A stretch of DNA of 64,000 nucleotides, from positions 16,097 through 80,096 of IMG/VR virus record IMGVR_UViG_3300033066_000276, one strand, 5' to 3'. The stretch comes from a virus (Duplodnaviria; Caudoviricetes). Positions 32,391 to 55,327 of the stretch are shown here, one piece after another. The translations under genes and the position numbers were made by a program. Positions within the stretch are counted from its first letter, which is position 1, and each line of letters starts with the position of its first letter. The notes beneath the pieces are model-generated. The model saw only the letters and a program-made list of their open reading frames with translations. It did no database searches and was not told the origin of the DNA.

Positions 32391-34710
32391 GCACGGTCAT
32401 GGTGCCGTAGTCTTCAGCGAGGTAGAAATTGTAGTCTGGTTGGTTGCGGTTTTTCTGTTGCTGCACGTAGATCATTCCAGCTTCCTTGCTGGCCTTGTCT
32501 CGCACCCAAGTCCACATATTTGAATTATGGACAATCATCCCATTGGCGACAAAACTATCAGTTCCTGGTACTGTCAAGTCATACACAGTCTGCTTACCCA
32601 CATAAGTAACTGATCTTACCGACTGTAGATGGTAGTCGGGACGTTTACGCCATTTGGTCGTGTGCTGGTATTGTTTATTTGGATGGATGCATCGGATATA
32701 CTTATTCCATAGCTCTAAATTGGCAATGCCTGCTACTTCAAATGACCAGCCACTACTCCAGGTTTTCTCAACCTTCTTCTCCTCACCATTTTGCTTAGCG
32801 TAGATTCCTAATCGTTGTAGCAATAAGCGAAAACGATGGCTCATCTCTTTTGATGTAGTAGAGAAAGCTTTTCTGTCTATCCCACTACCGCCATCACAAT
32901 CATATAGAGCACCAAGGCACTCACCTACTATATTTCGCGGTGATTGCATGACTACATCAGGGATATATTTGCTGTTGGCTTTGCCTGTTAAACCAGGGAT
33001 TGAGGCAAGTATCTCACTTACTTGCTTTTTGTAGACAACAACCCCACCCTTAACAGGAGAAGGTGTTATGCCAAACACTTTTTCAAAGCATCGAACGTAG
33101 TCTGCAATTAGTATTGGATTATGGTTGGCGAAATGTACTCGCCAACGTTTTTGCTCGTTACAGATATGACCGTCACCAATCAAATATCCAATCAACCGTG
33201 CAAACTCCTTGTTCATTCGCTTTGGAACTTTGACTCGTTGAGATCTATCAAATTTGTGTCTGTATTCTACTTGAAGTCTCATCTGACTACGAGGCCAAAT
33301 GTACTGTTGATTGAAGATAATATGGTCAGTAGGCTGTAGCTTCTTAAGCTCCCTCCACTCTACACCCTTTATCCCCATCACTGCAAAGCGGTGGTTTCCC
33401 GTTGCTGTAATCTCTACGCCGCGCTCTGTTACCAGCTTGTAGACTGGTTTCTTTCCGTTATTGTGGGCACGAAGAGCTATTCCAACGCCATTTTGTGACG
33501 TTACCATTTCTTGAATGTGTCGGTTGCCAGGTTCGTCCATAGCAACCAAATCTTGAATTGGGATAACGCCATTGGGTGTATCAATCAACGTGTTTCCAAT
33601 AACGCAAGCGTGTTCCTTCATGCCCTTTGAATAGCGAATGATCCCTTCTTCGCTAAGCTGCGCTAGAACCACAACAATGCAGCGGTTGGCTTCGGCGAAG
33701 CGTTTGCAGAAACGAGCAATATCCGACAGCTTGCGCCATTGATCGTCTGTACTTGCACCCTTCAAGAGGTTGATGTAGTCGATGATAATGACAGGGTAGC
33801 TGAACGGCTTGAGTCGGAACAGCGTTTCCTCGATGGTCAAGTCCTCATCGGGGATCATGTGGGTTTCGACTGAACCACGCTTCTTCAGGTCGGCCGTGTA
33901 TTCCTTCCACGCACGAGTGAGCTTCTTCACCTCCTTACGAGTGAGGTCAGCCGGTCGCAACATACGTTCGAGCGGAATCTTAGTCAGATACGACATACGC
34001 CGCATCATCATTTCCGTCTCGTTCATTTCAAGGCCGACGATGCAGGTCCGGTAGCCTTGCTTGGCCCAATTGTGCGCCAGCACTTGTGCAAGAGTTGACT
34101 TACCGCCGCCGGTGTTGGCTGCAATTAGAAACAAACCGCCCAGCGGTATCCCGGCTGAGCGGCGGTCGAAACTATCGAATCCTGTAGGGATAAAGCGAGT
34201 AGCTGTACCCTTTAGAAAGTCCCTGAGTATCTTCTTGGTGTTGTTATTGTCACCGTAATTGAACATCGTCTCACGGTTGCCGGTTGAGTTGGCTTCCATG
34301 AGTTTCACGCTGATCTTCGCCAGCATGTCATCGATGTCTACGGTTTCACCTTTGAGCGCTTCAACGCCTTCACGGTGCATCTCATGCACGAGACGCAAGC
34401 GGCGGAATTCATTAAGCTGGCGGGCAATGGTTGTGGCTCGCTTCTTGCTGCGAATCCTAACCTTCTGCACCTTACGCAGCTTCGCTCTTACCCGTTCGGG
34501 GAGCTTGGTATCATGGCAGATAGTATCGTAGTCGGGGCGAGCACCTGTGTTCCGCATGATCGTAGTGATGCGACGGAAGACAGCTTTGCCAGTTGATGTC
34601 TGAAAGTGGTTTTCGTTACATAGACCTAGCAGTACGTTGGCACTGTGTTCGTGTTCGCCAACCATCGCGCGAACAGCTTTAAGCTCCAAAGAAATGTCGA
34701 ACAGTTTCAC
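32233..34710 (-). CDS. dnaB: Replicative DnaB-like helicase containing an intein
   Basis: Walker A AANTGGGKST, VGLEMN, IIIDYINLL, VVLAQLS, RYSKGMKEHA|SN, KNRN arginine finger; acidic C-terminal tail. Confidence 0.92.
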   Translation of the reverse strand: MKLFDISLELKAVRAMVGEHEHSANVLLGLCNENHFQTSTGKAVFRRITTIMRNTGARPDYDTICHDTKLPERVRAKLRKVQKVRIRSKKRATTIARQLNEFRRLRLVHEMHREGVEALKGETVDIDDMLAKISVKLMEANSTGNRETMFNYGDNNNTKKILRDFLKGTATRFIPTGFDSFDRRSAGIPLGGLFLIAANTGGGKSTLAQVLAHNWAKQGYRTCIVGLEMNETEMMMRRMSYLTKIPLERMLRPADLTRKEVKKLTRAWKEYTADLKKRGSVETHMIPDEDLTIEETLFRLKPFSYPVIIIDYINLLKGASTDDQWRKLSDIARFCKRFAEANRCIVVVLAQLSEEGIIRYSKGMKEHACVIGNTLIDTPNGVIPIQDLVAMDEPGNRHIQEMVTSQNGVGIALRAHNNGKKPVYKLVTERGVEITATGNHRFAVMGIKGVEWRELKKLQPTDHIIFNQQYIWPRSQMRLQVEYRHKFDRSQRVKVPKRMNKEFARLIGYLIGDGHICNEQKRWRVHFANHNPILIADYVRCFEKVFGITPSPVKGGVVVYKKQVSEILASIPGLTGKANSKYIPDVVMQSPRNIVGECLGALYDCDGGSGIDRKAFSTTSKEMSHRFRLLLQRLGIYAKQNGEEKKVEKTWSSGWSFEVAGIANLELWNKYIRCIHPNKQYQHTTKWRKRPDYHLQSVRSVTYVGKQTVYDLTVPGTDSFVANGMIVHNSNMWTWVRDKASKEAGMIYVQQQKNRNQPDYNFYLAEDYGTMTVRDPTEEELKGFESYVKGNGGSEGGKKGKGGKGGSKKRPKEEQDESLDDYLED
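32524..33606 (-). mobile_element. Intein (361 aa) with LAGLIDADG endonuclease, in DnaB
   Basis: Begins CVIGNTLIDT, ends SFVANGMIVHN, followed by Ser; LIGYLIGDG and LGALYDCDG motifs. Confidence 0.95.
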
Positions 34711-35910: not shown

Positions 35911-36173
35911 GTCTTTTCCTTCTTCGCTTTGAACGCTCGCAGATTCGCGACCGCTTCTTCAATAATACGATCCGTGTCGTCGATATGGGCAAGTCTCAGG
36001 CTTGAATGATTGTCAAGAACATCATCTACCTGAATACGTCGGTGGGCGATAACCTTGCCGTTTTTCAGCTCTCGATTGATAACGCAGAAGATAGGCCAAC
36101 CTTCTTCGGACGTACCGATCTGAAATTTCTCGTAGATGCGGCCTTCTTTGGCCCACATGCGATTAAGATCCAT
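35907..36173 (-). CDS. Hypothetical protein
   Basis: Likely start MDLNRMWAK at 36173. Confidence 0.5.
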   Translation of the reverse strand: MDLNRMWAKEGRIYEKFQIGTSEEGWPIFCVINRELKNGKVIAHRRIQVDDVLDNHSSLRLAHIDDTDRIIEEAVANLRAFKAKKEKT

Positions 36174-36684
36174 TCCATTTGTTCCACAGGTTGACGACCT
36201 TGCAGTCCTTGTTGTTGGCTTCGGCGAAACGGATGCAATTTTCGGTGCCGCCCTTAGATCCATCCCATAAGGCAATTAGTCGGGTTGCTTTCATCACCAT
36301 CCAAGCGTTTCGGTCCTGCAAAGCCTTTGCCACTTTCCAGAATGGAACCTCACCTTTGTCGTCAAACTCAGTGATGTAGTGGATACGTTTGGATTGTACC
36401 AGCAGATCGTTGTAGTATTTCTGACTCTCACGCGGCCACCGTTTCTCTTGACCGTGAAATGGCACCGCAGCAACGAACGGAATCTCAAGGTCAACACAGG
36501 CTTGTGCGAACGCCTGATCCCAACCTAGAGCCATACCGGAGATAGCTCGATAAGGCCGATGCGACTGTAGATATTTCTTCGCCAGTCTAACTAGGTTGGC
36601 ATGTGTTCCGAGAGAATAGCCGCCAAGTTTGTTGGGTCGATGTCCAGTTGCCGCAAAGACTTGACGGCCTACCCACCTAGCCAT
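36163..36684 (-). CDS. YpsA/DUF1273-like SLOG-superfamily protein
   Basis: ATGHRPNKLGGY, ISGMALGWDQ, AAVPFHGQEKRWP, RNAWMV, LWDGSKGGTENCI are diagnostic YpsA/SLOG motifs; likely ATG at 36684. Confidence 0.85.
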   Translation of the reverse strand: MARWVGRQVFAATGHRPNKLGGYSLGTHANLVRLAKKYLQSHRPYRAISGMALGWDQAFAQACVDLEIPFVAAVPFHGQEKRWPRESQKYYNDLLVQSKRIHYITEFDDKGEVPFWKVAKALQDRNAWMVMKATRLIALWDGSKGGTENCIRFAEANNKDCKVVNLWNKWNGS

Positions 36685-36925
36685 AAAGTATGTCTTCCAA
36701 TAGAATACGTTCGGTTGGATCATAATAATCGTTGAGTTCAGGCACGATCTCCGCCACCGCTTCGCAGCTAGCCATGATGGATGAAAGCCAAAGGCCCTTG
36801 CCAGTAGTCCTCCAGGCAAACTCTCGCGCGCGTTGTTCATCAGCAGCTACAAGCGTGAAGCCACGAGTCTCATCGTAGCATTTATTGTAGTCATCCCCCT
36901 TCCTTTTTAGAATCCAAACGCGCAC
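36677..36925 (-). CDS. Conserved phage hypothetical protein
   Basis: GTG start giving MRVWILKR; YD..GFTLVAADEQRAREFA pattern. Confidence 0.5.
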   Translation of the reverse strand: MRVWILKRKGDDYNKCYDETRGFTLVAADEQRAREFAWRTTGKGLWLSSIMASCEAVAEIVPELNDYYDPTERILLEDILYG

Positions 36926-38874: not shown

Positions 38875-39091
38875 CGTTAAACTCCTCGAAGCTGATGCCA
38901 TCCTTGGTGATGATTGAACGAAGTCGGATCATGGTAACCGGCTTGGGCTCAATAGCGTAGATGTTGATGGCGTTGGTGGCGTAGTTAGCGACCACTCTAG
39001 CCTTACGAAACCGGCCTTCTAGTCGGTATTGAATACGCAGACGAACGACCGTGCAACCGAGCACCAAGGTACGCCAGAGGTGATACCACAT
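38858..39091 (-). CDS. 77-aa protein resembling the tail-sheath C-terminal domain
   Basis: TGATG-coupled start; PVTMIRLRSIITKDG-ISFEE vs sheath PVEKIRLRTIITREGDISFFE, 14 identities in 21 columns. Confidence 0.7.
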   Translation of the reverse strand: MWYHLWRTLVLGCTVVRLRIQYRLEGRFRKARVVANYATNAINIYAIEPKPVTMIRLRSIITKDGISFEEFNDGDKT

Positions 39092-39477
39092 CAGTCGTCG
39101 TCCTTGAACTTAAAGAACCAACCGATGATCCGCTGCGTAGCCAGGATATGGTTAGGGCTGTGAACGTGGCAGTGTGCTTGTAGCCACGGACTCAACGGGC
39201 GAGGCGAAACCAAGGACACATACTTACCAGCTTTGAAAGCGAGAACCACTTCCATAGCTGAGCCGTAGCTTGGCTTCCAACAGTTCGCCACTATTGCATC
39301 GCATTGTGCGATAGCGTGCAGATCACGTTGCACTACATTCTTGCCCTTCCAATCGGTAGGGTCGATGAAAGTAACACCTTGGTTGACGAACAGATTCTTG
39401 AGTTCGTTTCGCCAGTCGTGCGCCTCGCCATGCGTACAGTTTGCGATGGGACCGCATAGATAGATGCTAGGTGTCAT
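39091..39477 (-). CDS. Nucleoside 2-deoxyribosyltransferase / dNMP N-glycosidase (NDT/DNPH1-like)
   Basis: IYLCGPI, DWR, FIDP, VQRDLHAIAQCDAIVA, SYGSAMEV (catalytic Glu position). Confidence 0.85.
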   Translation of the reverse strand: MTPSIYLCGPIANCTHGEAHDWRNELKNLFVNQGVTFIDPTDWKGKNVVQRDLHAIAQCDAIVANCWKPSYGSAMEVVLAFKAGKYVSLVSPRPLSPWLQAHCHVHSPNHILATQRIIGWFFKFKDDD

Positions 39478-40994: not shown

Positions 40995-41183
40995 TTAGAA
41001 CTTAGCCTTTTCGATATTCTGTTTGATCTGCCCGATAGCCTTGTCTTTGCTTATTTCATTACCATCTTCATCTACGAACTTTATCTGAGCGCTACGGCGT
41101 TCACCTCTTAGCCTAGCCAACTCGGCTGCTTCTTCTTGGGTAATTTCCTTACCATCACCATCTATGTACTTAACCATTGTCAA
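40995..41183 (-). CDS. Small hypothetical protein with internal duplication
   Basis: VKYIDGDGKEITQEEA repeated as IKFVDEDGNEISKDKA. Confidence 0.55.
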   Translation of the reverse strand: MTMVKYIDGDGKEITQEEAAELARLRGERRSAQIKFVDEDGNEISKDKAIGQIKQNIEKAKF

Positions 41184-42832
41184 AACCTCCGTGGCACTTG
41201 CCGTGTGTGTGCTTCTGATTGGTGCTTACGATGATTTACCACTTTTCCTCCAAACCTTGAGGGCTTAGACGAGGCCAAAGCATACATCCGTTCACGGTTT
41301 TCTTTGCTCATCTTGTAGCGTGGTTGGTTGCCATACTTGTTGCCTTCGAGGTAGGGAGAGATTGCAGTCCAACACAGCTTACGCAGACAACCTATGCTCT
41401 GTGGCATGTCATCGACGTAGATCTTGACCTTGGGTTGGCGCTTGCCTTTGGCTGGCGTGCAAGGACGACAGGCCAATTGATAGAACATCGGTCCATTCGA
41501 GGTCGGGATTACTTGATGCAGCACAGTGGGGCGCTTCATGTCCACGCCTTGCTTCATCATCGATGAGATCGCAACGACGACTAGGTGTTTGCCCTTTTCA
41601 AAGTCTCGCAGCACCTTCTTTTGATCGGAGTCAGCGTTGTAGGCCACCGCCATCTGATCGGGCCATTCTTCACCGCGTTTGCGATTGTTAATTCGAGCCT
41701 GATTGTTTATCGTCTGGATGAGTAGGTTCTGTTGCTTGCGATACTCCACTGGAATGATGACGCCACCATGCCCCTCACGCAGATCCTTGAATACGTCCTT
41801 GACGATTCTCTTGGTGCGTCCTGGATCACTACCGATGAATGATAAGAAGTAGGTCCAGTGGTTGATCTTCTTACCCTCACCGGGGTTGACGCCGGTTTCA
41901 ACGATCTCTAATTCAGGCAGCAGAGCCGCGGTGTGTGAACGCACAGTCACCGGTCCAAGCAAAGCGTAGCCGATGAATTGACGATTGTCCTTGCGGTCGG
42001 GTGTGGCCGTAAGACCAAGCCGGTAGCGACTATCGATCTCGTTGATAAATTTGGCAAACGCCGACGCAGAACCCATGTGGGCTTCGTCAACGATCAACAG
42101 ACCAAACTTGCCGGTGATCGCTTCCTTCAATCGTCCAGGGCCATACTTGCTGATGAACTTCTGGTAGTTGACCAGCACTACGTCAGCCTTGGTGTCAAGG
42201 TCTTCAACCGTACTCACCATCTTGACTACGGTTCGACCACGCCGTTTGAGATCATTCATGTTGGTGAAGTCTCGATAGGTGCGGTAGAACTGACGCAGCA
42301 GTTGCTTTTTGTGGGCCACAATCAGAGTACGGGTGCCAAGTTGCACTGAGATGAAGCAACCGAGAACAGTCTTACCCGTCCTCGGTGCCGCCTCGATGAT
42401 GCCATGCTTAACCTTGAGCCATTCGTCTGTCAGCTTGACTTGGTTAGCAGTCTTAATGTCGTCGATAGTTTGCCCGTGATAGAGCTCACGCGTGAACTTT
42501 ATCTTGTTGCGGAATGGAGGATTGGCACGCTTGTCTATGGCTAGGTGAAAGTCAAAGCCGATCTTCTTGGCTGTAACTCGATCTCCTGACGGGACAGCGA
42601 TGTAGTCTTCACCCTTGAAATTGCCCTTACGCCACAGCTTGATCTCACCCTGGAAGGCAGGGCATTGGTCACAAAGTTCGTTATGACGATCAGGCAAATT
42701 TTTACATCTTCCACAAGCACTTTCGTCATAGATAGAACGTTGGTAGTGTTGTTTAACCTCCCGAAGATTAACTTGATCCCTCCGTAGGTATAACTTGTCT
42801 TTGATTATGAACTTTGGTGAAGCCATGACCAT
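41180..42832 (-). CDS. Superfamily 2 DNA helicase (UvsW-like)
   Basis: EAAPRTGKT, LIVDEAH, GLTATPDRKD, QGVDMKR, YQLACR. Confidence 0.88.
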   Translation of the reverse strand: MVMASPKFIIKDKLYLRRDQVNLREVKQHYQRSIYDESACGRCKNLPDRHNELCDQCPAFQGEIKLWRKGNFKGEDYIAVPSGDRVTAKKIGFDFHLAIDKRANPPFRNKIKFTRELYHGQTIDDIKTANQVKLTDEWLKVKHGIIEAAPRTGKTVLGCFISVQLGTRTLIVAHKKQLLRQFYRTYRDFTNMNDLKRRGRTVVKMVSTVEDLDTKADVVLVNYQKFISKYGPGRLKEAITGKFGLLIVDEAHMGSASAFAKFINEIDSRYRLGLTATPDRKDNRQFIGYALLGPVTVRSHTAALLPELEIVETGVNPGEGKKINHWTYFLSFIGSDPGRTKRIVKDVFKDLREGHGGVIIPVEYRKQQNLLIQTINNQARINNRKRGEEWPDQMAVAYNADSDQKKVLRDFEKGKHLVVVAISSMMKQGVDMKRPTVLHQVIPTSNGPMFYQLACRPCTPAKGKRQPKVKIYVDDMPQSIGCLRKLCWTAISPYLEGNKYGNQPRYKMSKENRERMYALASSKPSRFGGKVVNHRKHQSEAHTRQVPRRF

Positions 42833-43371
42833 GCCCTTCCAGAGATGATATTTTGTATCAAAGAAGGAGACACATTAAATCTATCACTCATCCCCTTAAC
42901 ACCAAATTTACTATGTCCTCGCTTGAACTTGCGTTTGATGAACAAGACATCATCTTTGCATAATTTAGCTTTTGGATGTCGAGTACCTTGTAGTGTCGTC
43001 CCGTGTTTTGAAGCATCTGCGCCATTTTCAACGTAGGTTCCATATTCTATGTTGGTCGCAACATTGTTTGTTCCCACGCCATCAAGATGACGAACTACAA
43101 GACCATTCGGCCTTTTGCCTTTGAAAGCTCTAGCCACTAGGACATGCACATATTTGGTATATTTTACAGCTTCTCTGCACAAAGAAACAGTACGATACGG
43201 TCCACTTCGTGCTTGTTTCAATACACGTCCAGGTACTACGTAGGACTTGAGTGGAACACCATTTCTCATAGCATTAACGGTTGTTCCCAGTGATCTTACC
43301 CTCCCCAAGTTAGAGACTTCATAATTGGGGTATCCCTTGACCTTCTTCCATATCTCTTTGGGTGCTGGCAT
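42805..43371 (-). CDS. NUMOD4-HNH homing endonuclease
   Basis: EIWKKVKGYPNYEVSNLGRVRS (NUMOD4), YVHVLVA, VRHLDGVGTNNVATNIEYGTYVEN; likely ATG at 43371. Confidence 0.9.
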   Translation of the reverse strand: MPAPKEIWKKVKGYPNYEVSNLGRVRSLGTTVNAMRNGVPLKSYVVPGRVLKQARSGPYRTVSLCREAVKYTKYVHVLVARAFKGKRPNGLVVRHLDGVGTNNVATNIEYGTYVENGADASKHGTTLQGTRHPKAKLCKDDVLFIKRKFKRGHSKFGVKGMSDRFNVSPSLIQNIISGRAWSWLHQSS

Positions 43372-43375
43372 TTGG

Positions 43376-44593
43376 TTAATATGTCTCTGGATCACGACCC
43401 GAAGGTGGGGAAGCTGGTGGTGGTAGCACCGCTTCTGCTGCTGCGGTTGGAACAACAGGCGGCGGTGTTGGTGGTATTGGAGTTACTGCAATCACCGCTT
43501 CCTTGACTATGGGCTCCTTGTTGACTGCCAGCACTTGCATCAAGTCGGCAATCATCTTGATCTCAGCTTCGTCAAACACTCGCGGTCGGGTAACCGAAGG
43601 ATTGACCTGAGCCTTGTTCAAGAACAGCAGTCGCGCCAAGTCACTAGCACTGTTTACCTTAAGCGCCGTGGGGAACAATTCGTCGGTAAACGGGGTTGGA
43701 CGAACGATTGGCGTGGCTCCAGCCAACACTGCTTCCATGACCTCGTACTGCATCGTATCCCGATCGTTCCACCCCAACACCCATTGGCAGCGAGATAGAA
43801 AGCTCAAGTAGTCATGTTTGTTCTTGACAACCCGGAACATCAGGTTCTGTGGCAGCTTGGTTGTATCGGGTAGATTGCGTCGGCTATTGAGCATACTGCC
43901 TGGAACGACAGCCATAAACCTAACTAGGTCTAGGCCACGACTAAGACGATAGCTAGCGTTGTCACTGGTGACGCCAGCCAGACTATTGTACTCACGCGCA
44001 GCATCAATCAACACTTGCAGACCGTTGTCATCGCAAACCCGTTGCGGCATGACCAAGATCTTTTCCTTCGTCGTCGCCGTGAACGCCTTGTCAACGCGAC
44101 ATGGATAGCCGACTACAGCCACCTTGTCTCCACCGATCATGTGGTGCTGCATCAGTGCGTCTTTCAACGCCTGAGTAGCAACGTAGATACGATCAGCCCC
44201 TTCCATGATGTTGTCTTCAAAGCGACCGACAACGTTGCGATTGCTCTTATCCCACATCCGTGTGGTGCTGGTGACGATACCGGCGTAAGGAATCTCAGGA
44301 TTGTCCATCACAATCGACGGCACTTCTGGAGACAACAGGTCCATGAAGAACAGCATGTCGAACTGGTGATGCTTCTTTTCTTCGGCCATCTGACGAAGAA
44401 CGTTGAGCCGGTTTTCGGTTTGATAGGATGGATCGTAGAAACTCTCCACGTTGGTAATCGCGGTGAAGTTGGTGCCGCCAATCATCACCACTTCCGCCAT
44501 GCGCGACAGGTGGTAGACGAAGTCATCGACCAGTGTTTGTTCGGGACGAAACCAAGCTAGGGCGGGACGAACCAATCCAATAGTGTACTGCAT
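43376..44593 (-). CDS. GT-B (GT4-like) glycosyltransferase
   Basis: ADRIYVATQALKDAL, ILVMPQR, KHDYLSFLSRCQWV...DTMQYEVMEAVLAGATPIV (D/E-x7-E donor-binding motif); Pro-rich tail. Confidence 0.8.
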   Translation of the reverse strand: MQYTIGLVRPALAWFRPEQTLVDDFVYHLSRMAEVVMIGGTNFTAITNVESFYDPSYQTENRLNVLRQMAEEKKHHQFDMLFFMDLLSPEVPSIVMDNPEIPYAGIVTSTTRMWDKSNRNVVGRFEDNIMEGADRIYVATQALKDALMQHHMIGGDKVAVVGYPCRVDKAFTATTKEKILVMPQRVCDDNGLQVLIDAAREYNSLAGVTSDNASYRLSRGLDLVRFMAVVPGSMLNSRRNLPDTTKLPQNLMFRVVKNKHDYLSFLSRCQWVLGWNDRDTMQYEVMEAVLAGATPIVRPTPFTDELFPTALKVNSASDLARLLFLNKAQVNPSVTRPRVFDEAEIKMIADLMQVLAVNKEPIVKEAVIAVTPIPPTPPPVVPTAAAEAVLPPPASPPSGRDPETY

Positions 44594-44859
44594 TACTGCG
44601 CCTCCTCTAGCATATCAGTGACAATGTGTCGGTTGTCTGGATCGGCTAGAGGTTGTTGTGAAGGTGTGTCGGTGGCAGAGTAACGCAATTCCATGCGTAG
44701 GTAGACCAATTTGATTTCGTTTAGATCGTGCGCCATACTTGAAGCATAGTAAGCGATAGCCACCAGTATGAGCGAGCAAGCAACGATAGCGGCGTTGCGC
44801 ACTCCTTCTAGGAGCAACATCATCTGCTCCCAATTCATCTTTGAAATTTTCATAGTCAA
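44593..44859 (-). CDS. Small single-pass membrane protein
   Basis: Hydrophobic AAIVACSLILVAIAYYA; TAATG-coupled to the glycosyltransferase. Confidence 0.6.
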   Translation of the reverse strand: MTMKISKMNWEQMMLLLEGVRNAAIVACSLILVAIAYYASSMAHDLNEIKLVYLRMELRYSATDTPSQQPLADPDNRHIVTDMLEEAQ

Positions 44860-44862
44860 TCC

Positions 44863-45813
44863 TTACGCTAAACCGGGAAGCTCTACCCAATCAGCTTTCC
44901 ATTGCATTCCGCGCTTGAGGTTGTTTATGTCCAACCCCAATCCAAGTTTGAGATTTTTGTTGTAGCACTCCTGTAATGCCTTGAGCAAGATAAAGTCTTC
45001 GTGTAGGCTGTGACCCACGATTGAATAGGTGTATTGCAGGAGCTTTCGTCGCTCATCACGATCAAACAGCGCCAGCGCTAACAATCTGTTCTCAGCCGAC
45101 CGAAACTCCCATATCTCACACGGCGTTCGCAGCACCATCTCAATTTGATTGAGCATGAAGTCAGGCAAGAAAGGGTAGTGCTTGCCTGAGATCATAACCC
45201 CGTTGCTGCTCACGCACTCGAAACCGGGAATGTCTTCCCGCAAACGTCGGCTTAAATCGGTGAGCACTAGAGCACGTAGTTCGCTTCGTCCGCTAACACT
45301 AGCACCAAATCGATCGTAGGATTGGACTTTTACGTTCGTGTGCGCGTACCAGCAACTCTCCATGCCAATCGCTTGTAATTGGTTTCCAAACCAGATGTAG
45401 CGTGGGTTTATTACAAATTCGCCATGTCCGTCCTCAATGATGTCTAGAGGCAAGTCATGTAGAGTTCGCATGAAGTCTAGCTGCGCCGCCGCCCAAGTAG
45501 GTATAGTCAATTCAGCCAGTACCGTCCAGATGATGCCTCGGTCGGCGGTGCTGTGTTGCACTAACGGAATAAGGAAGTCGCCGTCAGCCATCAGACTAGG
45601 TGCGCTGACGTAGGGAATGGCCGTATCTTTCGACCATTCGTGGCTACCAATCTCCACGGATACGAAAGCGTACAGCCATTCTTTTTCTAGTGGTGCTACT
45701 CGCGGCCCCATCGTTGCTGAATGGTCAGACACTGCCTGCATGAACCGTTCAACTCTCGGCCAAAAAGTATCCCAATGCTGCAACCATGTCTTGCCATCAG
45801 TAACGTTAATCAA
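44863..45813 (-). CDS. GNAT-fold protein with Bpt/ATE1-like (aminoacyl-tRNA transferase-type) C-terminal domain
   Basis: EFRSAENRLLALALFD...LQYTY...HSL..FILLKALQE..NLKLGLGLDI...MQWK parallels Bpt/ATE1 E.R.dgrLvAvav.D...l..vYt...sLG...iL..i...l.ylYLGy.I...M.YK. Confidence 0.45.
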   Translation of the reverse strand: MINVTDGKTWLQHWDTFWPRVERFMQAVSDHSATMGPRVAPLEKEWLYAFVSVEIGSHEWSKDTAIPYVSAPSLMADGDFLIPLVQHSTADRGIIWTVLAELTIPTWAAAQLDFMRTLHDLPLDIIEDGHGEFVINPRYIWFGNQLQAIGMESCWYAHTNVKVQSYDRFGASVSGRSELRALVLTDLSRRLREDIPGFECVSSNGVMISGKHYPFLPDFMLNQIEMVLRTPCEIWEFRSAENRLLALALFDRDERRKLLQYTYSIVGHSLHEDFILLKALQECYNKNLKLGLGLDINNLKRGMQWKADWVELPGLA

Positions 45814-47197
45814 GACTCTTCCTCAATACTGTGCCTAGATCTATTTCGGACCCGATCAAGTTGATGATGTCTAGGCCAACGTCATCGCGGTAGGTATGTG
45901 ACCAGCAAGACACTTTCCTAGCTTGATCGTATAGCTCTTGTCGTGCATCGTCTATGCTAAAATTGTTAGCAGTCAAGATAACGGCTCGATCTTGCTGTAC
46001 GATGCGAACCGTTCCCTTCTTGTCGATGTAGCCCGCATCAAACAAGCGCTTTTGTACCACGATGGACAATTTGTCTAGGCCATGCACCAGGGCCAACATC
46101 TTGCCAGCCTTTTGCCCGACGAAGCTATCGTAATGCAGCAGACCAATGCTGACACTAAAGCCAGCGTCAGGATTAACTACTACATCTACATCGTCTTCTA
46201 TTGGCTCGAAGCCTGAAATATGCGCTAAGAAGCGAGCGTAGTGAACCATCGTTGAGATGATATGCTCAGTCGGGTAACCAAACCGCGTTGTGAACTCTAG
46301 AAAGTGTAGCTTGTTTCCGACCATGATCGTATTGATGCCGAAGAAGCCACGATACTCGCTGTCCTTCAAGTCTTGGGTAATGCTCTCGAAGAAACTTCTT
46401 ACGCGATAGGGTAGCTGATCGAACGGCACAAGCTGGCCTGCGGTTCCAGATTCACCTGAGAATACGCCGCCACGATTCTCATTGTTAACGCCCTTGTACT
46501 CACGATTGATGAAACAGAACTGCCAGAACCTCTGACCATCGAACCAACAATCGTAGCTGAACTCTTCGCCGCCAACGATTTGTTCTTCCATGAACACACC
46601 CTTCTCCCGCCGGAAGAAGTTGAAGTAATCCTGTTCGAGGAAGTCTTGGCAGTCGGCGCGGTTCGGTGGCAGCACTGTGTCCCAGGTGCCCTTGAGCAAG
46701 AAGTTCTTGGTCGGGTGCTTCTTTAATAGCTTGCGAGCGTCCTCGATCGTTTTAACGAATACGCCTTCGTGGTTCAGAGCAAAGCCGTGGGCTTCGGCCA
46801 ACACCTTACCAAAAGCTCTGTCGAGTTCCAGCTTGTTGGTGAATGTAGTTGGTCCAATCACGAAAGGATGGATCGAACGCAAGTAGTCAGCCACCATGCC
46901 CATCTGTTTGCCGTTGTAATCGCAAACGATGAAGTCCTTACCCTTGACGAAAGCACGTAGGTCTTCCAGCACTTGCGTGTGTAGTGACTTAGACAAGCCT
47001 CGATACTTGCGGCCTTCGTTCGCGATCTTGTAGGTACGCGGGTACAAGAACCTCAACCCCGAACTGTCTTTCAGTTCGTAGCGATTGATCCCTGCGATAA
47101 AGGCAGTGACCTTATGCCCTTCTTTCAGAAGTTGTTCTTGTAAGCCGACAGATGCCAGCATGTGACTGACGAAGCCGATGTTATACGCTCTGTTCAC
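45806..47197 (-). CDS. ATP-grasp amide ligase, PurD (glycinamide ribonucleotide synthetase)-like
   Basis: IGPT..TNKLELDRAFGK, FMEEQIVGGEEFS, REYK...GESG, YRGFFGINTI, LEFTTRFGYP (cf. PurD lEfNcRFGDPE). Confidence 0.8.
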   Translation of the reverse strand: MNRAYNIGFVSHMLASVGLQEQLLKEGHKVTAFIAGINRYELKDSSGLRFLYPRTYKIANEGRKYRGLSKSLHTQVLEDLRAFVKGKDFIVCDYNGKQMGMVADYLRSIHPFVIGPTTFTNKLELDRAFGKVLAEAHGFALNHEGVFVKTIEDARKLLKKHPTKNFLLKGTWDTVLPPNRADCQDFLEQDYFNFFRREKGVFMEEQIVGGEEFSYDCWFDGQRFWQFCFINREYKGVNNENRGGVFSGESGTAGQLVPFDQLPYRVRSFFESITQDLKDSEYRGFFGINTIMVGNKLHFLEFTTRFGYPTEHIISTMVHYARFLAHISGFEPIEDDVDVVVNPDAGFSVSIGLLHYDSFVGQKAGKMLALVHGLDKLSIVVQKRLFDAGYIDKKGTVRIVQQDRAVILTANNFSIDDARQELYDQARKVSCWSHTYRDDVGLDIINLIGSEIDLGTVLRKSLD

Positions 47198-47924
47198 GGG
47201 AGTCCTTCTTTCTTGCCACTACCAATGCCGAAGTCATCATGCGTTCACCGCAACTAAAGAATTCAGATGGGACAGGGCTATATCGTTTCCGCTCAGCTTC
47301 AAATTGTTTGGCCGTAAGACGTTTGGCCCCTAGCGAGGCTAGGTGTTCGTAGTAGTCCTGTGCGTCAATGGCTTCAATGCCTATCTCCAAACACAACTGT
47401 TCGAGGTATAGCAATGCAGCTTTACTTGATCCGCTTTCGATAGTGAACATGCTTTCGATAGTCAGATAATTGGGCAGGACCAACCCAAAAAGTCCACCGA
47501 CTAGCTTCTCCTTGGGGTCCAAAACTTCAATACTATAGGCTCGTAGCTGATCGTAAAGTTCTCGATAGGCGTTTTGGGTAGGTTCGTCCAACCAGTCAAT
47601 GAGATCGTAACCATCTTCTGTGTCTTCTTCTTTGCGTTTGATCGTAGCACAGGTCTCAACCACTCGACCAAATTGCGCAGCGTCTAGGTTATTGACGTTA
47701 AGCATAACGAACCATTTGTTCTTACGCAATTGTTGGCTCGTGGTTTTGGACATGTGAACCGACCCAGGTTCAAACACCGCTCGTGGATTAGGGATCACCC
47801 AATCCCAGGTCTTGCCTTCCTTGGACGACTTGCCGTCAATCACTGCACCAAAATCTAGTGCTGACTCGTAAAGGGTCTTACCCTTAACGGATCGAGTGCG
47901 TTTGAAAACCTCTGCGTCAGCCAT
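47181..47924 (-). CDS. aat: Leucyl/phenylalanyl-tRNA--protein transferase (Aat-like)
   Basis: PNPRAVF, HMSK, W(L)..AYRELY..AYSIEV, LVGGLFG, ESMF..SGSSKAAL, IDAQ, EHLASLGA reproduce the Aat motif order. Confidence 0.9.
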   Translation of the reverse strand: MADAEVFKRTRSVKGKTLYESALDFGAVIDGKSSKEGKTWDWVIPNPRAVFEPGSVHMSKTTSQQLRKNKWFVMLNVNNLDAAQFGRVVETCATIKRKEEDTEDGYDLIDWLDEPTQNAYRELYDQLRAYSIEVLDPKEKLVGGLFGLVLPNYLTIESMFTIESGSSKAALLYLEQLCLEIGIEAIDAQDYYEHLASLGAKRLTAKQFEAERKRYSPVPSEFFSCGERMMTSALVVARKKDSREQSV

Positions 47925-48841
47925 TATACTCTCGCAATGATATGGGTCGGCATCAGGTGCTTGGCCTTCTTAGCGGTAGCTTGCTTGTTCGGTAGCAAGT
48001 CTAGGTCAGCTTCGTCGGCTTGATCTTCCGAGCGAAAGAACATGAAGTCTATGAAGCCTGCCTCTTTGGCAATATCGATGATTTCAGTTTCAGACCAAAA
48101 CCGTTGTGTCCATGGGCGTTCAACGTCCACCGTCACCGCCAACTTACCGTCCTCGTAGAACTGCATCTCATCGAACTTGGTGACCGCGCAGCAACCAATC
48201 CGATCGTAGGTGAACTCTCGATCAACGTTGACGTAGACGTAGCTGTGTGATTTTAGCCCGAGTTCGTCACGCAGCGGATGCTGATACGGGATCACCAGTT
48301 CTTGCATACACTCCGACTCATGGTAGTCGATCAGATCTTCAAAGCCGATACGATACCCATCCGGGGCAATATCAAAGTAGAAACCACCACCTGTCTTTAG
48401 CAGCCGCGCCATGTTGCTGAACACACGCTGCATCTTGGGGCGCGAATGGTTCCAGTTGTTGTCCATAATTTGTGGTAACGGGTAGAAGAAGGCGAAGATC
48501 ATATCGAAGGTTATGTCGGTCTTCAATGATTCAGCGTCGCCGATCATCACGTCTGGAAAGACCATACCACCGTACTTGCGAAGCTCATTCTTGTAGTAAG
48601 ACTTGATTGGGAAGGTTGCGTGCTGGCGGAAATAGCCTTCGTGCTGCGATCCTGCACCCGACATGATCTCAAGGAATTGGAACCCTTCTTTCGGCACCGG
48701 ATAGTTACCGTGATGCACGAACTCTTCAACCGTGCGAACCGCAGTCCATGCCTCAAGGTGTTTATCCATCGGTAGGCCACCGTAGAACAGGCGGTACAAG
48801 CCATTCGATGAATAGATATGCTCGAACTCAAACGTCTTCAT
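47924..48841 (-). CDS. Class I SAM-dependent methyltransferase (small-molecule / amine N-methyltransferase-like)
   Basis: FLEIMSGAG motif I, IGDAESL, FDMIFAFF, ARLLKTGGGFYFD, C-terminal RFWSETEI...EAGF. Confidence 0.85.
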   Translation of the reverse strand: MKTFEFEHIYSSNGLYRLFYGGLPMDKHLEAWTAVRTVEEFVHHGNYPVPKEGFQFLEIMSGAGSQHEGYFRQHATFPIKSYYKNELRKYGGMVFPDVMIGDAESLKTDITFDMIFAFFYPLPQIMDNNWNHSRPKMQRVFSNMARLLKTGGGFYFDIAPDGYRIGFEDLIDYHESECMQELVIPYQHPLRDELGLKSHSYVYVNVDREFTYDRIGCCAVTKFDEMQFYEDGKLAVTVDVERPWTQRFWSETEIIDIAKEAGFIDFMFFRSEDQADEADLDLLPNKQATAKKAKHLMPTHIIARV

Positions 48842-50019
48842 GGGTACACCATATCCAGTAGTTTTCTTACGTAGTCTTTAGGGGTGCGGAAAACCTCGCG
48901 TGGGTCTTTCAACGCATCGACACTTCCATTCAGGTCGATGGTATGACCCAACTCTCTAGCGATCTCCTGCAAGCCGCCTTCCATCTTAGGTACGATGGTT
49001 CGCACGCCAGCGGCAGCCATCTCAAGCAAGTGATAGCCAAACGTCTCAAAGATCGCCACCGGATGGTAGCTGATGCTTGGACGTAAGGTGCTCACCGCGT
49101 ACAAGTAGTTCTCACGCGACAACGCGGTCTCAACCTTCACCCTTTCCTTTACCGAAGGAGTAGCGTCGATCAACACTTTCAGCATGGCTTGATTGCTGTA
49201 GTCTGCGAACACATGCAAGCGAGCGTGTACATCTTCCTTGAGCCAATTGATAAGCTGTTGCAGATCGTGCTTGGCCCACGTCAGACTCGCCAACACTAGG
49301 TTTTCATTCGGCTCAGTGATCTTCGATGGAAGCTCAACCGGGCATGGGTTCCAGAGCTTGGTGATGCGAGTGTTGTCCATGTTGAAGCGGTAGGCCAAGT
49401 TATTAAGCAACGTCCGCACAGTATTGGTAGGACAAACTATGTTGCCGAGGATACCACCTGACAGAGTAGTAATGACCCAATTCATCACGTCGAAGTCGGT
49501 CAGATTGTTGACGATGCCTTCTTGCTTTGGAGCCAACTGCATCATAGAGTTCTTATGGTCAAGCACTCGCTCCTTCAACCGAGTACCGGCAAACAGCCCC
49601 TCAAAGTCTTCACGAGTGAGCAATTCGCGTGCGCCAACCACACGATCCTTACCCCACTGCATATCGATGAAGCCAACGTCGTGGATGACGTGGATCATGC
49701 GTTTGTTCAGAGTGTAATTGAACGTGTAGAACTCCATCGGCAGAAAAACCGGCTGGTTGACCACGATTAGATCGTAGTCGCGCAGCCGTTCCTTTAACCA
49801 GGGAAGAATTGTGAAGTGCTTGAAAGCGTGAGCAGCGTGAATAAGACCAGCTTCGGCGCGACGGTACATCTCATTCGATCGGTCGAGCATTTCCGTGTAG
49901 TCTTTGGTATCGACCGTGTAGCCTATCTCTTCGAAGCCATGCTTCACTGTTTCAGTATAGACACCAATGCCTGTGATCGCCGCGCGATTCTGGTTGGTGA
50001 TGATTAGAACTTTCTGCAC
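48838..50019 (-). CDS. GT-B (GT4-like) glycosyltransferase
   Basis: KVLII...TGIGVY..EEIGYTV, HVIHD, IVCPTNTVR, FETFGYHLLEMAAAGVRTIV...GGLQEI. Confidence 0.85.
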   Translation of the reverse strand: MQKVLIITNQNRAAITGIGVYTETVKHGFEEIGYTVDTKDYTEMLDRSNEMYRRAEAGLIHAAHAFKHFTILPWLKERLRDYDLIVVNQPVFLPMEFYTFNYTLNKRMIHVIHDVGFIDMQWGKDRVVGARELLTREDFEGLFAGTRLKERVLDHKNSMMQLAPKQEGIVNNLTDFDVMNWVITTLSGGILGNIVCPTNTVRTLLNNLAYRFNMDNTRITKLWNPCPVELPSKITEPNENLVLASLTWAKHDLQQLINWLKEDVHARLHVFADYSNQAMLKVLIDATPSVKERVKVETALSRENYLYAVSTLRPSISYHPVAIFETFGYHLLEMAAAGVRTIVPKMEGGLQEIARELGHTIDLNGSVDALKDPREVFRTPKDYVRKLLDMVYP

Positions 50020-50526
50020 CTAGTCCTCTTTATTTAGCTCAGCAAATATGTCCGTGCTATCGAACTCTTTTTCCCTCATTTTCGTCCATATAGTCTCTAG
50101 TTCAGCCGTGGTAGCTGACCGAAACTGTAATAGAGTTCTTTCGACGGAGGCTTTATCCCTAATGTATAGCTCCATGTAAATTTGCTTGGTCTGTTGACGA
50201 GCAGGAGAGTTAACGCTATCGCCCCAAACCCATTTCCACTCGATACCATATAGGTTAATTGCTGACTCTAATTGAAACCTATTCCAAAGTTCATCAACCA
50301 ATTTGGTCAGCAATTGATCTCGCAGTGGTGTGCCTAGATACGGTCTTGCTTTCGACAACCACCAACTCAAACGAGCAGTCAAAACAGCGTTCATTGCTCT
50401 TCGTGCAGCAGGCATACTCACAGTAAGGGGAAGGCTGGCAAAGTAAGAGCGCAGAGACTTATAGAGCATAGGTATATTGATGGCGTGGTACTTGCTTTCA
50501 AAATCATCTTCAGAAACAAGGGTCAT
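50020..50526 (-). CDS. Hypothetical protein
   Basis: 168 aa, abuts the glycosyltransferase start. Confidence 0.55.
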   Translation of the reverse strand: MTLVSEDDFESKYHAINIPMLYKSLRSYFASLPLTVSMPAARRAMNAVLTARLSWWLSKARPYLGTPLRDQLLTKLVDELWNRFQLESAINLYGIEWKWVWGDSVNSPARQQTKQIYMELYIRDKASVERTLLQFRSATTAELETIWTKMREKEFDSTDIFAELNKED

Positions 50527-50852
50527 GTGAGTTGTCCATCTTTGCGTAAGCCGCGTAACTTACGTGACCTTTTTACCAACTTCAACATCCGTTTGTTGCC
50601 ACGTTGACGAGCCACGAACTCCGCTGGTGCGAACTTATCCATTGGGATCGCACCATACTTGATAGCTAGCTCTCGCTTGCTCATGGCAATGTCAAAATGA
50701 ACCCAAGATGCCTTGGGTGGCTTTTGAATCCACCGACGGCTGACACCGATTTTGTCCACCATTTTCAGGAGTTCAATCTCAGTGTCAGCCCAAAGATGGG
50801 ACATCTTCATCCGCCCGTAGGGAATGAAAGCGTTGTCAACGTAGACAGCCAT
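50523..50852 (-). CDS. DUF4031-family protein
   Basis: MAVYVD...RMKMSHLWADT..EL...IG..RRWIQ...HFDI...RELAIKYGA. Confidence 0.85.
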   Translation of the reverse strand: MAVYVDNAFIPYGRMKMSHLWADTEIELLKMVDKIGVSRRWIQKPPKASWVHFDIAMSKRELAIKYGAIPMDKFAPAEFVARQRGNKRMLKLVKRSRKLRGLRKDGQLT

Positions 50853-53120: not shown

Positions 53121-53690
53121 TCATCGCACGCACCTTCCAACGTGTTGCCATTTTTTACCTTTCACCGCCAAATGCATAGCAGACTGACTCACGTTAAATT
53201 TACGAGCCATAGCGGAAATACTACGAGTAGGATGATTACGTTTGTAAGTCCTACGCGCGTAAGCTACAATCTTTTCATCAAGTTTCGCAACACCATTTCT
53301 CGATCCCTTGTTGGCTCGTCCATGACGTTGTGTGTCTTCACAGTTTTCTTTGTGTGTACCATACTTTAGATTAGACAATTTAGAATTTGCACGGTCCCCA
53401 TCCAAATGTCTAACTTCTAATCCCTTAGGGCATGGTCCTCGAAACGTTTTTATCACCAAGCCATACACACTTCTATTGGTAACGTGGCCTTTCTTACTCA
53501 GTGAAACCATTGGATAATCTTTATCGCCAGGAGTCTGGCACAAAAGTTTTCCTTTATGGATACACGTTGTCCAAGTGCCCCACATATTTCTTTTGCGTAT
53601 CTTTCTAGTCAGGCTTCGCACTCGACCAAGATTGGATACTTGATAGAGATTTTTGTATCCTACTATGTCTTTCCAGATTTCTTTAGTCAT
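53121..53690 (-). CDS. NUMOD4-HNH homing endonuclease
   Basis: EIWKDIVGYKNLYQVSNLGRVRS, VRHLDGDRANSKLSNLKYGTHKEN; likely ATG at 53690; paralogue of 42805..43371. Confidence 0.9.
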   Translation of the reverse strand: MTKEIWKDIVGYKNLYQVSNLGRVRSLTRKIRKRNMWGTWTTCIHKGKLLCQTPGDKDYPMVSLSKKGHVTNRSVYGLVIKTFRGPCPKGLEVRHLDGDRANSKLSNLKYGTHKENCEDTQRHGRANKGSRNGVAKLDEKIVAYARRTYKRNHPTRSISAMARKFNVSQSAMHLAVKGKKWQHVGRCVR

Positions 53691-54255
53691 CGCTATAACG
53701 GGATTTTGTTCTTGGACCAGAGTCATTTTCCTGTTTAACAAGATTCAAGGCTTCGATGACTGCTTTAACACGCCAAGCAGCTTGGTCAATGTCATCGATT
53801 GCCATGTCAGCGGATTCAATCACCGCCTCAAGGCGTTTGGTTACTTTGAGTACCGGAGCTAGTACACGACGAATTGCTCCATCACGCTCAGCCGCCGTTC
53901 GCATTTCCTTGAGCAGACCCTTGTACTCGTCTTTCAAGTGATCGGCAGTTTCTTCAAAAGCCGCCTCAAGTATGCTCGACCAACGAAACACATGCAGCTT
54001 GATCTCCACCAAGCGACTACGGCGCGAACCATTTGACAGAGATACCTCCACCAAATGGCGCGACGCCGATTGCAATAGTTCACTGGCTGTGAGACTTCGG
54101 TCAAGGCGAGCCGCGTGTGTTGACTCAATCTCCTTGACCAAAGCTCTGGTGTCAGGCAAGTTCTTCGACGATGCCTTTTTCAGCAGCCGAATAACGTGCT
54201 CGTCTTCTTTAGCCCGACGAAGGAACGAAACGTTCTTTACGGTCACGTTGGGCAC
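53683..54255 (-). CDS. Coiled-coil protein, possibly UvsY-like recombination mediator
   Basis: All-helical; TAAERDGAI...IDDID...WRVKAVIE resembles the UvsY C-terminus; replication context. Confidence 0.35.
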   Translation of the reverse strand: MPNVTVKNVSFLRRAKEDEHVIRLLKKASSKNLPDTRALVKEIESTHAARLDRSLTASELLQSASRHLVEVSLSNGSRRSRLVEIKLHVFRWSSILEAAFEETADHLKDEYKGLLKEMRTAAERDGAIRRVLAPVLKVTKRLEAVIESADMAIDDIDQAAWRVKAVIEALNLVKQENDSGPRTKSRYSDD

Positions 54256-54811: not shown

Positions 54812-55327
54812 TTAATTCATTCCTATAGTCCAGTGTTGATCGTTGACAATGTAAGAGATCGTTGATCGAGCTACGTTGAACTTCTTTGCGATAGCCTTCC
54901 CGCTATATTTACCTGGGTGGTGAGGAACATAATGCTTCCTGATCCAAGCAACTTGTGCAACTGTTAATTCCGCTCTAGGATTTTTCTCACCCCAGGTTTG
55001 TCGTTTCTTATTAACCTTGTCCTCAACGTTACTCGCATGAGTACCTTTGAACAAGTGATCCGGCTTCACGCATTTTGGTGTGTCACAAGTATGGAGCACA
55101 CATATACACGTCTTTCCCTTGTCTTTGTTCTTTGGTAGTCGTCCTTTGAACAAGACGTATGAAGCACGATGGGCGGTTATCTGACATTGCTTACCATCAC
55201 TGTCAACGAAGCTGAAATGTCCGTAGACTTCACCTCCACCTACCCAAAACCAACACCCTCTTGTTTTGCGTACATAAGAAAGGAAGCGCTTTTGGACTTC
55301 TTTTTTCCTAGTCGGAGTTAGCCTCAT
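54812..55327 (-). CDS. HNH homing endonuclease
   Basis: CWFWVG, AHRASY, VLHTCDTPKCVKPDHLFKGTHASN, C-terminal HTH. Confidence 0.9.
   Translation of the reverse strand: MRLTPTRKKEVQKRFLSYVRKTRGCWFWVGGGEVYGHFSFVDSDGKQCQITAHRASYVLFKGRLPKNKDKGKTCICVLHTCDTPKCVKPDHLFKGTHASNVEDKVNKKRQTWGEKNPRAELTVAQVAWIRKHYVPHHPGKYSGKAIAKKFNVARSTISYIVNDQHWTIGMN

Follow-up and report, generated by a model that had tools for sequence, protein, structure and literature searches.

What could a phage make with two probable glycosyltransferases, an amide ligase, two aminoacyl-tRNA transferase-like proteins, a methyltransferase and a small, putatively membrane-spanning protein encoded side by side among its replication genes? 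This question is raised by seven head-to-tail genes on the minus strand (50019–43376) of a window of 64,000 nucleotides, which covers bases 16097–80096 of the 80,096-bp IMG/VR virus record IMGVR_UViG_3300033066_000276. The record is 36% complete according to CheckV; the whole phage would thus have about 200 kb, of which the record is a fragment. Our analysis supports the view that the seven genes are one conserved unit, because the block is collinear in a close relative while the adjacent genes vary. We propose, at somewhat less than an even chance, that they constitute one tailoring cassette whose acceptor is a modified DNA nucleobase or a free-base precursor, possibly 7-deazaguanine.

The genes mostly overlap, and the successive junctions from the glycosyltransferase candidate at the upstream end (GT2) to the one at the downstream end (GT1) are −4, −1, −17, −8, +3 and −1 nt. 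This layout of open reading frames (ORFs) confirms the seven adjacent, mostly overlapping genes described in the initial annotation. The co-orientation of the block means little by itself, because almost every large ORF of the window is on the minus strand. We found that the whole block is collinear in a Logan contig (L002), with about 85% nucleotide identity and 78–91% protein identity. The ratio of nonsynonymous to synonymous substitution rates (dN/dS) against L002 was 0.06–0.13 in all seven genes (GT2, 0.083; methyltransferase, 0.056; aminoacyl-tRNA transferase Aat, 0.127; PurD-like ligase, 0.089; 316-aa protein, 0.089; 88-aa protein, 0.068; GT1, 0.093) and 0.07 in the helicase gene. All seven genes are thus real and under purifying selection. 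Beside the block, L002 differs from the window: it has another upstream gene, an extra 73-aa ORF and an HNH region that is unalignable at the DNA level. The slot directly upstream of GT2 is occupied by a 168-aa gene without family match in the window (50020..50526, minus strand) and by an unrelated 273-aa gene in L002 (6361–7182), a change of gene that sets the upstream limit of the conserved block.

The Aat-family aminoacyl-tRNA transferase (from the family of the leucyl/phenylalanyl-tRNA-protein transferases; 47181..47924, minus strand, 247 aa) passes the gathering cut-off of PF03588 (111 bits vs. 22.7, E = 5.6 × 10−32) over profile positions 18–170 of 171. It falls below the cut-off of the equivalog model TIGR00667 (79.5 bits vs. 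143.55). Judged by its sequence, the protein is a secure member of the family, for which the same function as that of bacterial Aat is not demonstrable. It aligned with the E. coli Aat structures at E = 6 × 10−15, and in the alignment to 2z3k the motif IDAQ stands opposite E. coli IDCQ, so that the equivalents of Asp186 and Gln188 are kept. The equivalent of Glu156 (the Glu of ESMF) is also kept in this alignment. We take Asp186 and Gln188 (E. coli numbering) to be the catalytic residues of Aat, a role reportedly described by Watanabe et al. in 2007. The profile match and the retained residues agree with the earlier identification of this gene as Aat.

The neighboring 463-aa protein (45806..47197, minus strand) had been called a PurD-like ATP-grasp enzyme. 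In a phmmer search against the PDB it matched the PurD structure 2yw2 (E = 8 × 10−12, residues 78–442), and also 1vkz, 2yrw and 3lp8. By homology of its A and C domains to solved members, it is a clear homologue within the ATP-grasp superfamily. It resembles PurD across nearly its full length and has the same ATP-grasp core, and by analogy its chemistry is expected to be alike, that is, an amino-acid carboxylate would be joined to a primary amine. However, it scored under the Pfam cut-offs for GARS_A (20.8 vs. 27), GARS_C (20.4 vs. 34.8) and also ATP-grasp_3, and far under the equivalog cut-off of TIGR00877 (E = 8 × 10−13, 47.9 bits vs. 288). In an alignment it clusters with proteins of the candidate phyla radiation (CPR) and DPANN that are annotated as PurD, with which it has the motifs EFTTRFGYPT and YR(D/T)D and a differing N-terminus in common. 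Canonical PurD carries an RFGDPE signature and a GGREHA-type N-terminal motif, whereas the cassette ligase has RFGYPT and another N-terminus; the alignment itself included no bona fide PurD. No other purine genes are found near the ligase gene. On the TIGR00877 score and the motifs we rejected a real PurD of the purine pathway; the earlier name holds for homology and fails for orthology. Phage homologues of the ligase are P0002 (88% identity), P0003 (43%) and P0004 (30%). Many of the CPR/DPANN proteins (among P0005–P0120) are annotated as phosphoribosylamine-glycine ligase and have RFGYPT with an altered N-terminal motif; they may be a mis-annotated ligase family with a different substrate. 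One CPR homologue adjoins murB (L015:6001–7308).

The 316-aa protein (44863..45813, minus strand) had been described as a GNAT (Gcn5-related N-acetyltransferase) of the Bpt/ATE1 type. It gave no match in Pfam, NCBIfam, PHROG or the PDB sequences, including ATE_N and ATE_C (PF04376/PF04377), and it is nearly an orphan, with 4 matches among 1.8 billion representatives in an exhaustive phmmer search. Its AlphaFold2 (AF2) model was poor (predicted local distance difference test, pLDDT, 53.7). With this model, Foldseek returned only GNATs (E ≈ 6 × 10−3), and the full-length matches were aminoacyl-phosphatidylglycerol synthase/MprF proteins (E = 0.015–0.04). VIA-align placed human ATE1 first (Z = 9.2, root-mean-square deviation 3.8, 129 residues), with NatD and other GNATs tied within 1 Z, and the ESM Atlas gave Acetyltransf_6, FemAB, LPG_synthase_C and ATE_C. 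These comparisons of a modeled fold suggest that the protein is likely a divergent GNAT resembling the ATE1, MprF and Fem aminoacyl-tRNA transferases. The earlier description is therefore kept at the level of fold, on a weak model, and finds no counterpart in sequence. The true start of the protein may be the Met at residue 25.

No Pfam match was found for the 305-aa protein (47924..48841, minus strand), in which the glycine-rich motif I of class I enzymes is visible. In the ESM Atlas it matched at a score of 0.95, with a TM-score of 0.65 (query) or 0.78 (hit) over about 240 residues, and the best 10 matches were all Methyltransf_11/25; one of the clusters matched is a sugar N-methyltransferase cluster. 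By predicted fold and motif it is a class I S-adenosylmethionine (SAM)-dependent methyltransferase, as the initial annotation had it. Homologues occur in L006 (39% identity) and in the Xanthomonas phage PhiXhv-16 (E = 1 × 10−15). Searches of PDB sequences, with single sequences and with profiles, were uninformative for this protein, the 316-aa protein, GT2 and the A4 family discussed below.

The two outer genes had both been read as GT-B glycosyltransferases. GT2 (48838..50019, minus strand, 393 aa), which would be GT4-like, matched Pfam Glycos_transf_1 (PF00534) at E = 0.008 over residues 314–358, which span its E-x7-E motif, and its 16.1 bits are under the cut-off of 26.4. It has only close relatives, P0128 (90%) and P0129 (78%), the latter on a further contig of the same lineage. 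GT1 (43376..44593, minus strand, 405 aa), with a Pro-rich C-terminal tail, has no Pfam match and an acid-x7-acid motif. In hhalign it was linked to a 367-aa annotated glycosyltransferase of PhiXhv-16 (probability 70%, E = 4 × 10−5, 28% identity, 254 columns), which adjoins PIG-L and Gat-QueC genes. The only PDB matches of the GT1 family profile were to MshA, a GT-B enzyme of family GT4 (E = 0.07). Close relatives of GT1 are P0126 (87%) and P0127 (78%), and P0127 is carried by L012, another fragment of the same lineage. The profile-profile comparison of GT1 with GT2 gave no link. The acid-x7-acid motifs and the weak profile matches make both proteins probable GT-B glycosyltransferases, which retains the earlier reading below the level of a secure Pfam assignment.

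Between GT1 and the 316-aa gene is a small gene (44593..44859, minus strand) whose product has 88 aa when counted from a TTG; the start is likely the ATG at 44853. The protein has one hydrophobic stretch at positions 25–43 (Kyte-Doolittle 1.99 over 19 residues), in accordance with the transmembrane peptide of the initial annotation, and a single transmembrane helix is predicted. It found no family match in Pfam or PHROG, and it is kept in L002 at 77.5% identity.

Do these families occur together in more distant phages? A tblastn search with Aat found homologues at 39% identity in five cultured jumbo phages, namely Xanthomonas PhiXhv-12, PhiXhv-15, PhiXhv-16 and Ep026, and Erwinia Ep032. In PhiXhv-16 (PV764603.1), four of the seven cassette families are located within about 15 kb (L009:4227–19057). 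The gene order is Aat, a 545-aa fusion of Acetyltransf_6 and GNAT, a pair of unknown genes, a 264-aa Fem-like protein, Gat-QueC, PIG-L, glycosyltransferase and GFO_IDH_MocA oxidoreductase, and a homologue of the methyltransferase family is found about 5 kb upstream of this run. The PhiXhv-16 Aat was matched at E = 3 × 10−38, and the 264-aa Fem-like protein belongs to the family of the 316-aa protein, to which it is linked via P0122–P0124. Gat-QueC, annotated as GlmS, combines a QueC domain (E = 2 × 10−49) with GATase_7. This phage also encodes DpdA-like and QueD-like proteins, about 95 kb from the Aat/Gat-QueC cluster, and it otherwise shares only about 25–40% identity. Most genes of the PhiXhv-16 cluster are annotated as hypothetical.

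A second lineage is represented by IMGVR_UViG_3300045988_171246 (G001; L003:1–14587, also L004, L005 and L011), a 209-kb jumbo phage that is 93% complete. Its gene order is FolE, DUF7487, a 479-aa TGT/DpdA-like protein, QueC, A4, QueC, A4, PurD-like ligase, A4, a 392-aa protein and a KamA-like protein, the last being a radical SAM protein of the lysine-2,3-aminomutase type. The ligase is P0004, with 30% identity to that of the window. This cluster is a candidate for aminoacyl- or beta-lysyl-7-deazaguanine DNA modification. In a third lineage (L006), the order is a glycosyltransferase fragment, Methyltransf_11, A4, PurD-like ligase, A4, a relative of the 305-aa methyltransferase and GFO_IDH. 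The A4 paralogues have about 320 aa, and their low-confidence model (pLDDT 57) suggests FemX/Sbb17-like tandem GNATs. It matched FemX in Foldseek (E = 6.8 × 10−6, probability 1.0), and in VIA-align the matches were Sba18 (Z = 10.9), Sbb17 (Z = 10.7), MprF (Z = 10.5) and FemX (Z = 9.8). Therefore, three lineages, those of the window, L003 and L006, share the pairing of the ligase with an aminoacyl-tRNA-transferase-like protein. Profile-profile comparison gave no sequence link among A1 (the family of the 316-aa protein), A4 and the 545-, 291-, 347- and 240-aa proteins of PhiXhv-16. Nor did it link the 303- and 392-aa genes of L003 to the 305- and 393-aa genes of the window, despite their similar lengths.

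Further relatives of the 316-aa protein are flanked by a QueC-family gene and a PIG-L gene, with PolA or DnaB close by. In the phage-like contig L008 (6922–11535) the relative is between an intein-bearing QueC and PIG-L, with a GATase-like gene upstream of QueC and PolA nearby; in an ERZ25072076 contig, also phage-like, it is again between QueC and PIG-L, with DnaB and an MmcB-like gene nearby. Thus, cassette families mixed with sugar enzymes and 7-deazaguanine genes recur in independent lineages. The co-conservation expected from the initial annotation is found both here, in distant phages, and in the collinear block of L002.

Searches of reference collections gave few further relatives. Among GenBank phages, neither DNA nor protein searches gave a match to the whole block, the PurD-like gene, GT1 or GT2, and none of the seven proteins matched a PHROG family. 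The PhiXhv-16 and L003 counterparts matched only generic acetyltransferase PHROGs and one PHROG of unknown function (the PIG-L protein). No close relatives came from IMG/VR when it was scanned with the PurD-like protein, with the profiles of A1 and Aat or with PolA, the exception in IMG/VR being G001, which was found via the A3 profile. From a scan of metagenomes we obtained only three short contigs. Judged by PolA, the cultured phages nearest to this one are jumbo myoviruses, Yoloswag and pEa_SNUABM_5 of Erwinia and PaBG of Pseudomonas, at about 30% identity, and no close relative of this phage appeared in the PolA scan of IMG/VR.

The placement of the block between a helicase and the replication genes was also confirmed. 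Downstream are an NUMOD4/HNH homing endonuclease gene, which we place outside the pathway (42805..43455, minus strand; PF07463, E = 6.7 × 10−13; PF13392, E = 2.8 × 10−10; phrog_59), and then a ResIII/DEAD superfamily-2 helicase gene (41180..42832, minus strand; PF04851, E = 3.4 × 10−20; phrog_16). Upstream are small ORFs, a clamp-like gene, PolA and SNF2, and farther downstream are an intein-bearing DnaB, a nucleoside 2-deoxyribosyltransferase-like gene and a SLOG gene. From these flanking genes, the cassette sits in a replication and nucleotide-metabolism module. A search of the window for tRNA genes found none.

We propose that the cassette would build an appendage that is glycosylated, methylated and amino-acid-bearing on an acceptor with an amine or a hydroxyl group. 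Most likely, this acceptor is a nucleobase, either in modified form within the DNA of the phage itself or as its free-base precursor, and 7-deazaguanine is the leading candidate. In the first step, one or both of the GT-B enzymes would attach the sugar or sugars. The PurD-like ATP-grasp enzyme would then make an amino-acid acyl phosphate and couple it to a primary amine of the base or sugar, leaving the alpha-amine free; Aat and the ATE1/Fem-like GNAT would extend this amine with residues from charged host tRNAs, and the class I methyltransferase would finally cap an amine or hydroxyl. The analysis shows which genes are present, that they are conserved, to which families and folds they can be assigned and that relatives associate them with deazaguanine genes, whereas the substrates, the target and the sequence of steps are our inference. 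A DNA nucleobase is favored as target because of the gene neighborhoods of the relatives and the location in the replication module. A chain of such activities had been suggested in the initial annotation. The suggestion gains from the conservation of the genes as a unit and from solved or published parallels for ATP-grasp amide priming, tRNA-dependent extension, methylation and glycosylation, and the chain as a whole is still a proposal. A narrower form of it, which we regard as distinctly less probable, is a short peptide or amino-acid chain, attached to a DNA base (probably 7-deazaguanine) through a sugar or directly, started by the PurD-like enzyme, extended from tRNA by Aat and the Fem-like protein and then methylated, in common with PhiXhv-16-like and G001-like phages. 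If true, this would be tRNA-dependent peptide synthesis on DNA, independent of the ribosome.

Several points weigh against a modified nucleobase as the acceptor. QueC, TGT/DpdA, a ThyA-like gene and a DpdA-like homologue were not found in the 80-kb record, and L013, which reaches about 4 kb beyond the window end, adds only SNF2. Because the DpdA/QueD-like genes of PhiXhv-16 are about 95 kb from its cluster, absence from a 36% fragment is weak evidence. PF00303 (the ThyA-like dU/dC hydroxymethylase of thymidine hypermodification) was not matched in the fragment, where the 5-HMUDK kinase and aGPT-Pplase were not searched for. No deacetylase or aminotransferase is encoded in the cassette, nor anything else that would obviously supply the amine. 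The proposed link to DNA comes wholly from gene neighborhoods in distant relatives (25–40% identity). In addition, the assignment to GT-B is weak for both glycosyltransferase candidates, and neither of the two AF2 models reaches more than low confidence. Aat was not found in G001, and the families are accordingly not obligately linked. Finally, the transmembrane peptide in the block and the CPR ligase homologue beside MurB may point to the cell envelope.

The product could instead be a free small molecule, such as a glycosyl- or peptidyl-nucleobase or nucleoside of the huimycin, roseomycin or streptothricin type, serving as an inhibitor of host or competitor or as a cofactor. Indeed, the closest chemical parallels act on small molecules (Sbb17 and Sba18 on an amino sugar, HuiC and HuiG on preQ0, RoyL and an ATP-grasp enzyme on 7-carboxy-7-deazaguanine, CDG), and a DNA transglycosylase was not found in the fragment. 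However, the relatives with these families also have DpdA-like, base-inserting genes, and the cassette is inside a replication module with no evident gene for export or self-resistance. To our knowledge, there is little precedent for secondary metabolites made by lytic phages. We therefore consider a free small molecule unlikely.

An equally small chance is given to remodeling of a host envelope precursor (lipid II, or a lipopolysaccharide or capsule sugar) for phage exclusion or lysis control, in which sugars would be attached by the GT-B enzymes and amino acids by the ATP-grasp enzyme and its Fem-like partner. Proteins with Fem/MprF-type folds work on lipid II and phosphatidylglycerol, PIG-L and sugar oxidoreductases are present in the relatives, and the sole PDB profile match of GT1 (MshA), the transmembrane peptide and the MurB neighbor of the CPR ligase fit such a role. 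However, small transmembrane ORFs are common throughout phage genomes, and the cassette enzymes themselves have no membrane segments. A flippase, a polyprenyl-phosphate transferase and a lipid-carrier gene are all absent, and in two independent lineages these families are intermingled with genes for FolE, QueC and DpdA-like proteins.

As improbable as these two is a protein target, where Aat and the ATE1-like GNAT would add N-terminal residues (rewiring of N-degrons through ClpS/ClpAP, or modification of the virion) and the glycosyltransferases would glycosylate virion proteins. Virion glycosylation occurs in mycobacteriophages. The E. coli enzyme modifies proteins, and the cassette Aat retains the equivalents of its catalytic Asp/Gln and of its Glu156; ATE1 is the best VIA match of the 316-aa model. 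Such a target would give no role to the PurD-like ligase or the methyltransferase, and it would leave the recurrence with QueC, PIG-L and sugar oxidoreductases unexplained; moreover, it is the replication module, and not the structural module, that holds the cassette. Chance adjacency of functionally unrelated accessory genes in a dense genome would suit a window that is co-directional and tightly packed throughout, with a promoter and terminator scan at background level and no excess that delimits an operon, but we rejected it as very improbable because a phage of otherwise only about 25–40% identity has four of the seven families together in about 15 kb, the ligase and aminoacyl-tRNA transferase pairing recurs in three lineages, and the block is kept while its neighbors differ.

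Some features of the surrounding module were also recorded. Next upstream of the variable slot is a conserved DUF4031 homologue (50529–50852). NUMOD4/HNH-type homing endonuclease genes occur three times across the replication module (42805–43455, 53121–53741 and 54812–55327). The DnaB-like helicase gene (window 32233–34710) is split by an intein with LAGLIDADG domains, and DnaB in L012 is uninterrupted (465 aa). A few kb downstream of the cassette are the nucleoside 2-deoxyribosyltransferase-like gene (39091–39477), slightly below Pfam cut-offs, and the YpsA/SLOG gene (36163–36840), both of which might be involved in editing of the nucleotide pool.

How new is such a cassette? In the full-text literature, apart from the work on Mom, we found no paper in which Aat, PurD-like or Fem-like enzymes are connected with deazaguanine clusters or with the modification of phage DNA. 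A survey of jumbo phages (PMC7824862) does not mention these families in such a role, and the paper on the PhiXhv phages does not discuss the Aat/Gat-QueC cluster. The literature thus agrees with the earlier statement that no characterized phage pathway has this combination, Mom being a precedent for tRNA-dependent DNA hypermodification alone. We consider the combination of enzymes new, and the cassette most likely serves nucleic-acid hypermodification by the phage in a form not described before. Hypermodifications known from phage DNA consist of small groups or of single sugars, with Mom as the sole case to date in which a charged tRNA is used. If our proposal is true, the cassette extends that chemistry to glyco-aminoacyl or peptidyl adducts, which could influence the evasion of restriction and CRISPR and supply new enzymes for DNA labeling. 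Even with a target other than DNA, the Aat family would gain a new role through a phage-borne member that works in biosynthesis as part of such a cluster. The hypothesis is testable now, because the cultured phages PhiXhv-12, -15 and -16, Ep026 and Ep032 have a related cluster, and PhiXhv-16 is an experimentally tractable proxy.

The logic of the cluster is similar to that of mycothiol and bacillithiol synthesis, in which a GT-B enzyme (MshA/BshA), a PIG-L deacetylase (MshB/BshB), an amino-acid ligase and a GNAT cap act together. The PhiXhv-16 cluster has a glycosyltransferase, PIG-L, amino-acid transferases and a GNAT in matching logical order, and the GT1 profile leads to MshA. However, the window cassette is without a deacetylase, its ligation enzymes are unrelated to MshC and BshC, and thiol chemistry is not implied.

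Similar tailoring repertoires on a 7-deazapurine are found in actinomycetes. Huimycin is preQ0 with a methyl group and N-acetylglucosamine, made with a glycosyltransferase and a SAM methyltransferase (PMC7439116), and the roseomycin-type clusters join amino acids to CDG and include ATP-grasp and methyltransferase genes (bioRxiv 10.64898/2026.04.15.718813). However, these products are small molecules, their amide is formed by the QueC-like RoyL and not by a PurD-like enzyme, and aminoacyl-tRNA transferases are not involved. Sbb17 and Sba18 of the streptothricin-type BD-12 pathway acylate an amino sugar from aminoacyl-tRNA, according to their PDB titles, which shows that tRNA-dependent acylation of a sugar amine is feasible. 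Together with FemX, which forms an amide from aminoacyl-tRNA on a peptidoglycan precursor, they are the best structural matches of the A4 family, whose genes stand on either side of the PurD-like gene in relatives, and the low-confidence model of the 316-aa protein suggests the same fold class. They belong to bacterial secondary-metabolite or cell-wall pathways, and similarity in sequence is not detectable.

Among phages, the 7-deazaguanine systems combine DpdA with FolE, QueD, QueE and QueC or with Gat-QueC, and DpdM and DpdN act as tailoring enzymes (PMC6884629, PMC10516641); dPreQ1 in phage DNA can be methylated or formylated (PMC10516641). In PhiXhv-16 and G001, relatives of four cassette families are located among Gat-QueC, QueC and DpdA-like genes or next to them. 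The window differs in that a core deazaguanine gene is not visible in its 80-kb fragment, and none of the known systems has an ATP-grasp ligase, aminoacyl-tRNA transferases or glycosyltransferases. Another parallel is Mom of phage Mu, a GNAT that uses Gly-tRNA to carbamoylmethylate DNA adenine (PMC13219725); the same paper lists the L/F-transferase, FemX, MprF and PacB as related uses of charged tRNA. Mom resembles the proposed pathway in its GNAT fold in a phage, its charged-tRNA acyl donor and its DNA acceptor. It is a single enzyme with one GNAT domain, whereas the cassette combines two types of tRNA transferase with a ligase, a methyltransferase and glycosyltransferases. Thus, tRNA-dependent hypermodification of DNA itself has a precedent in Mom.

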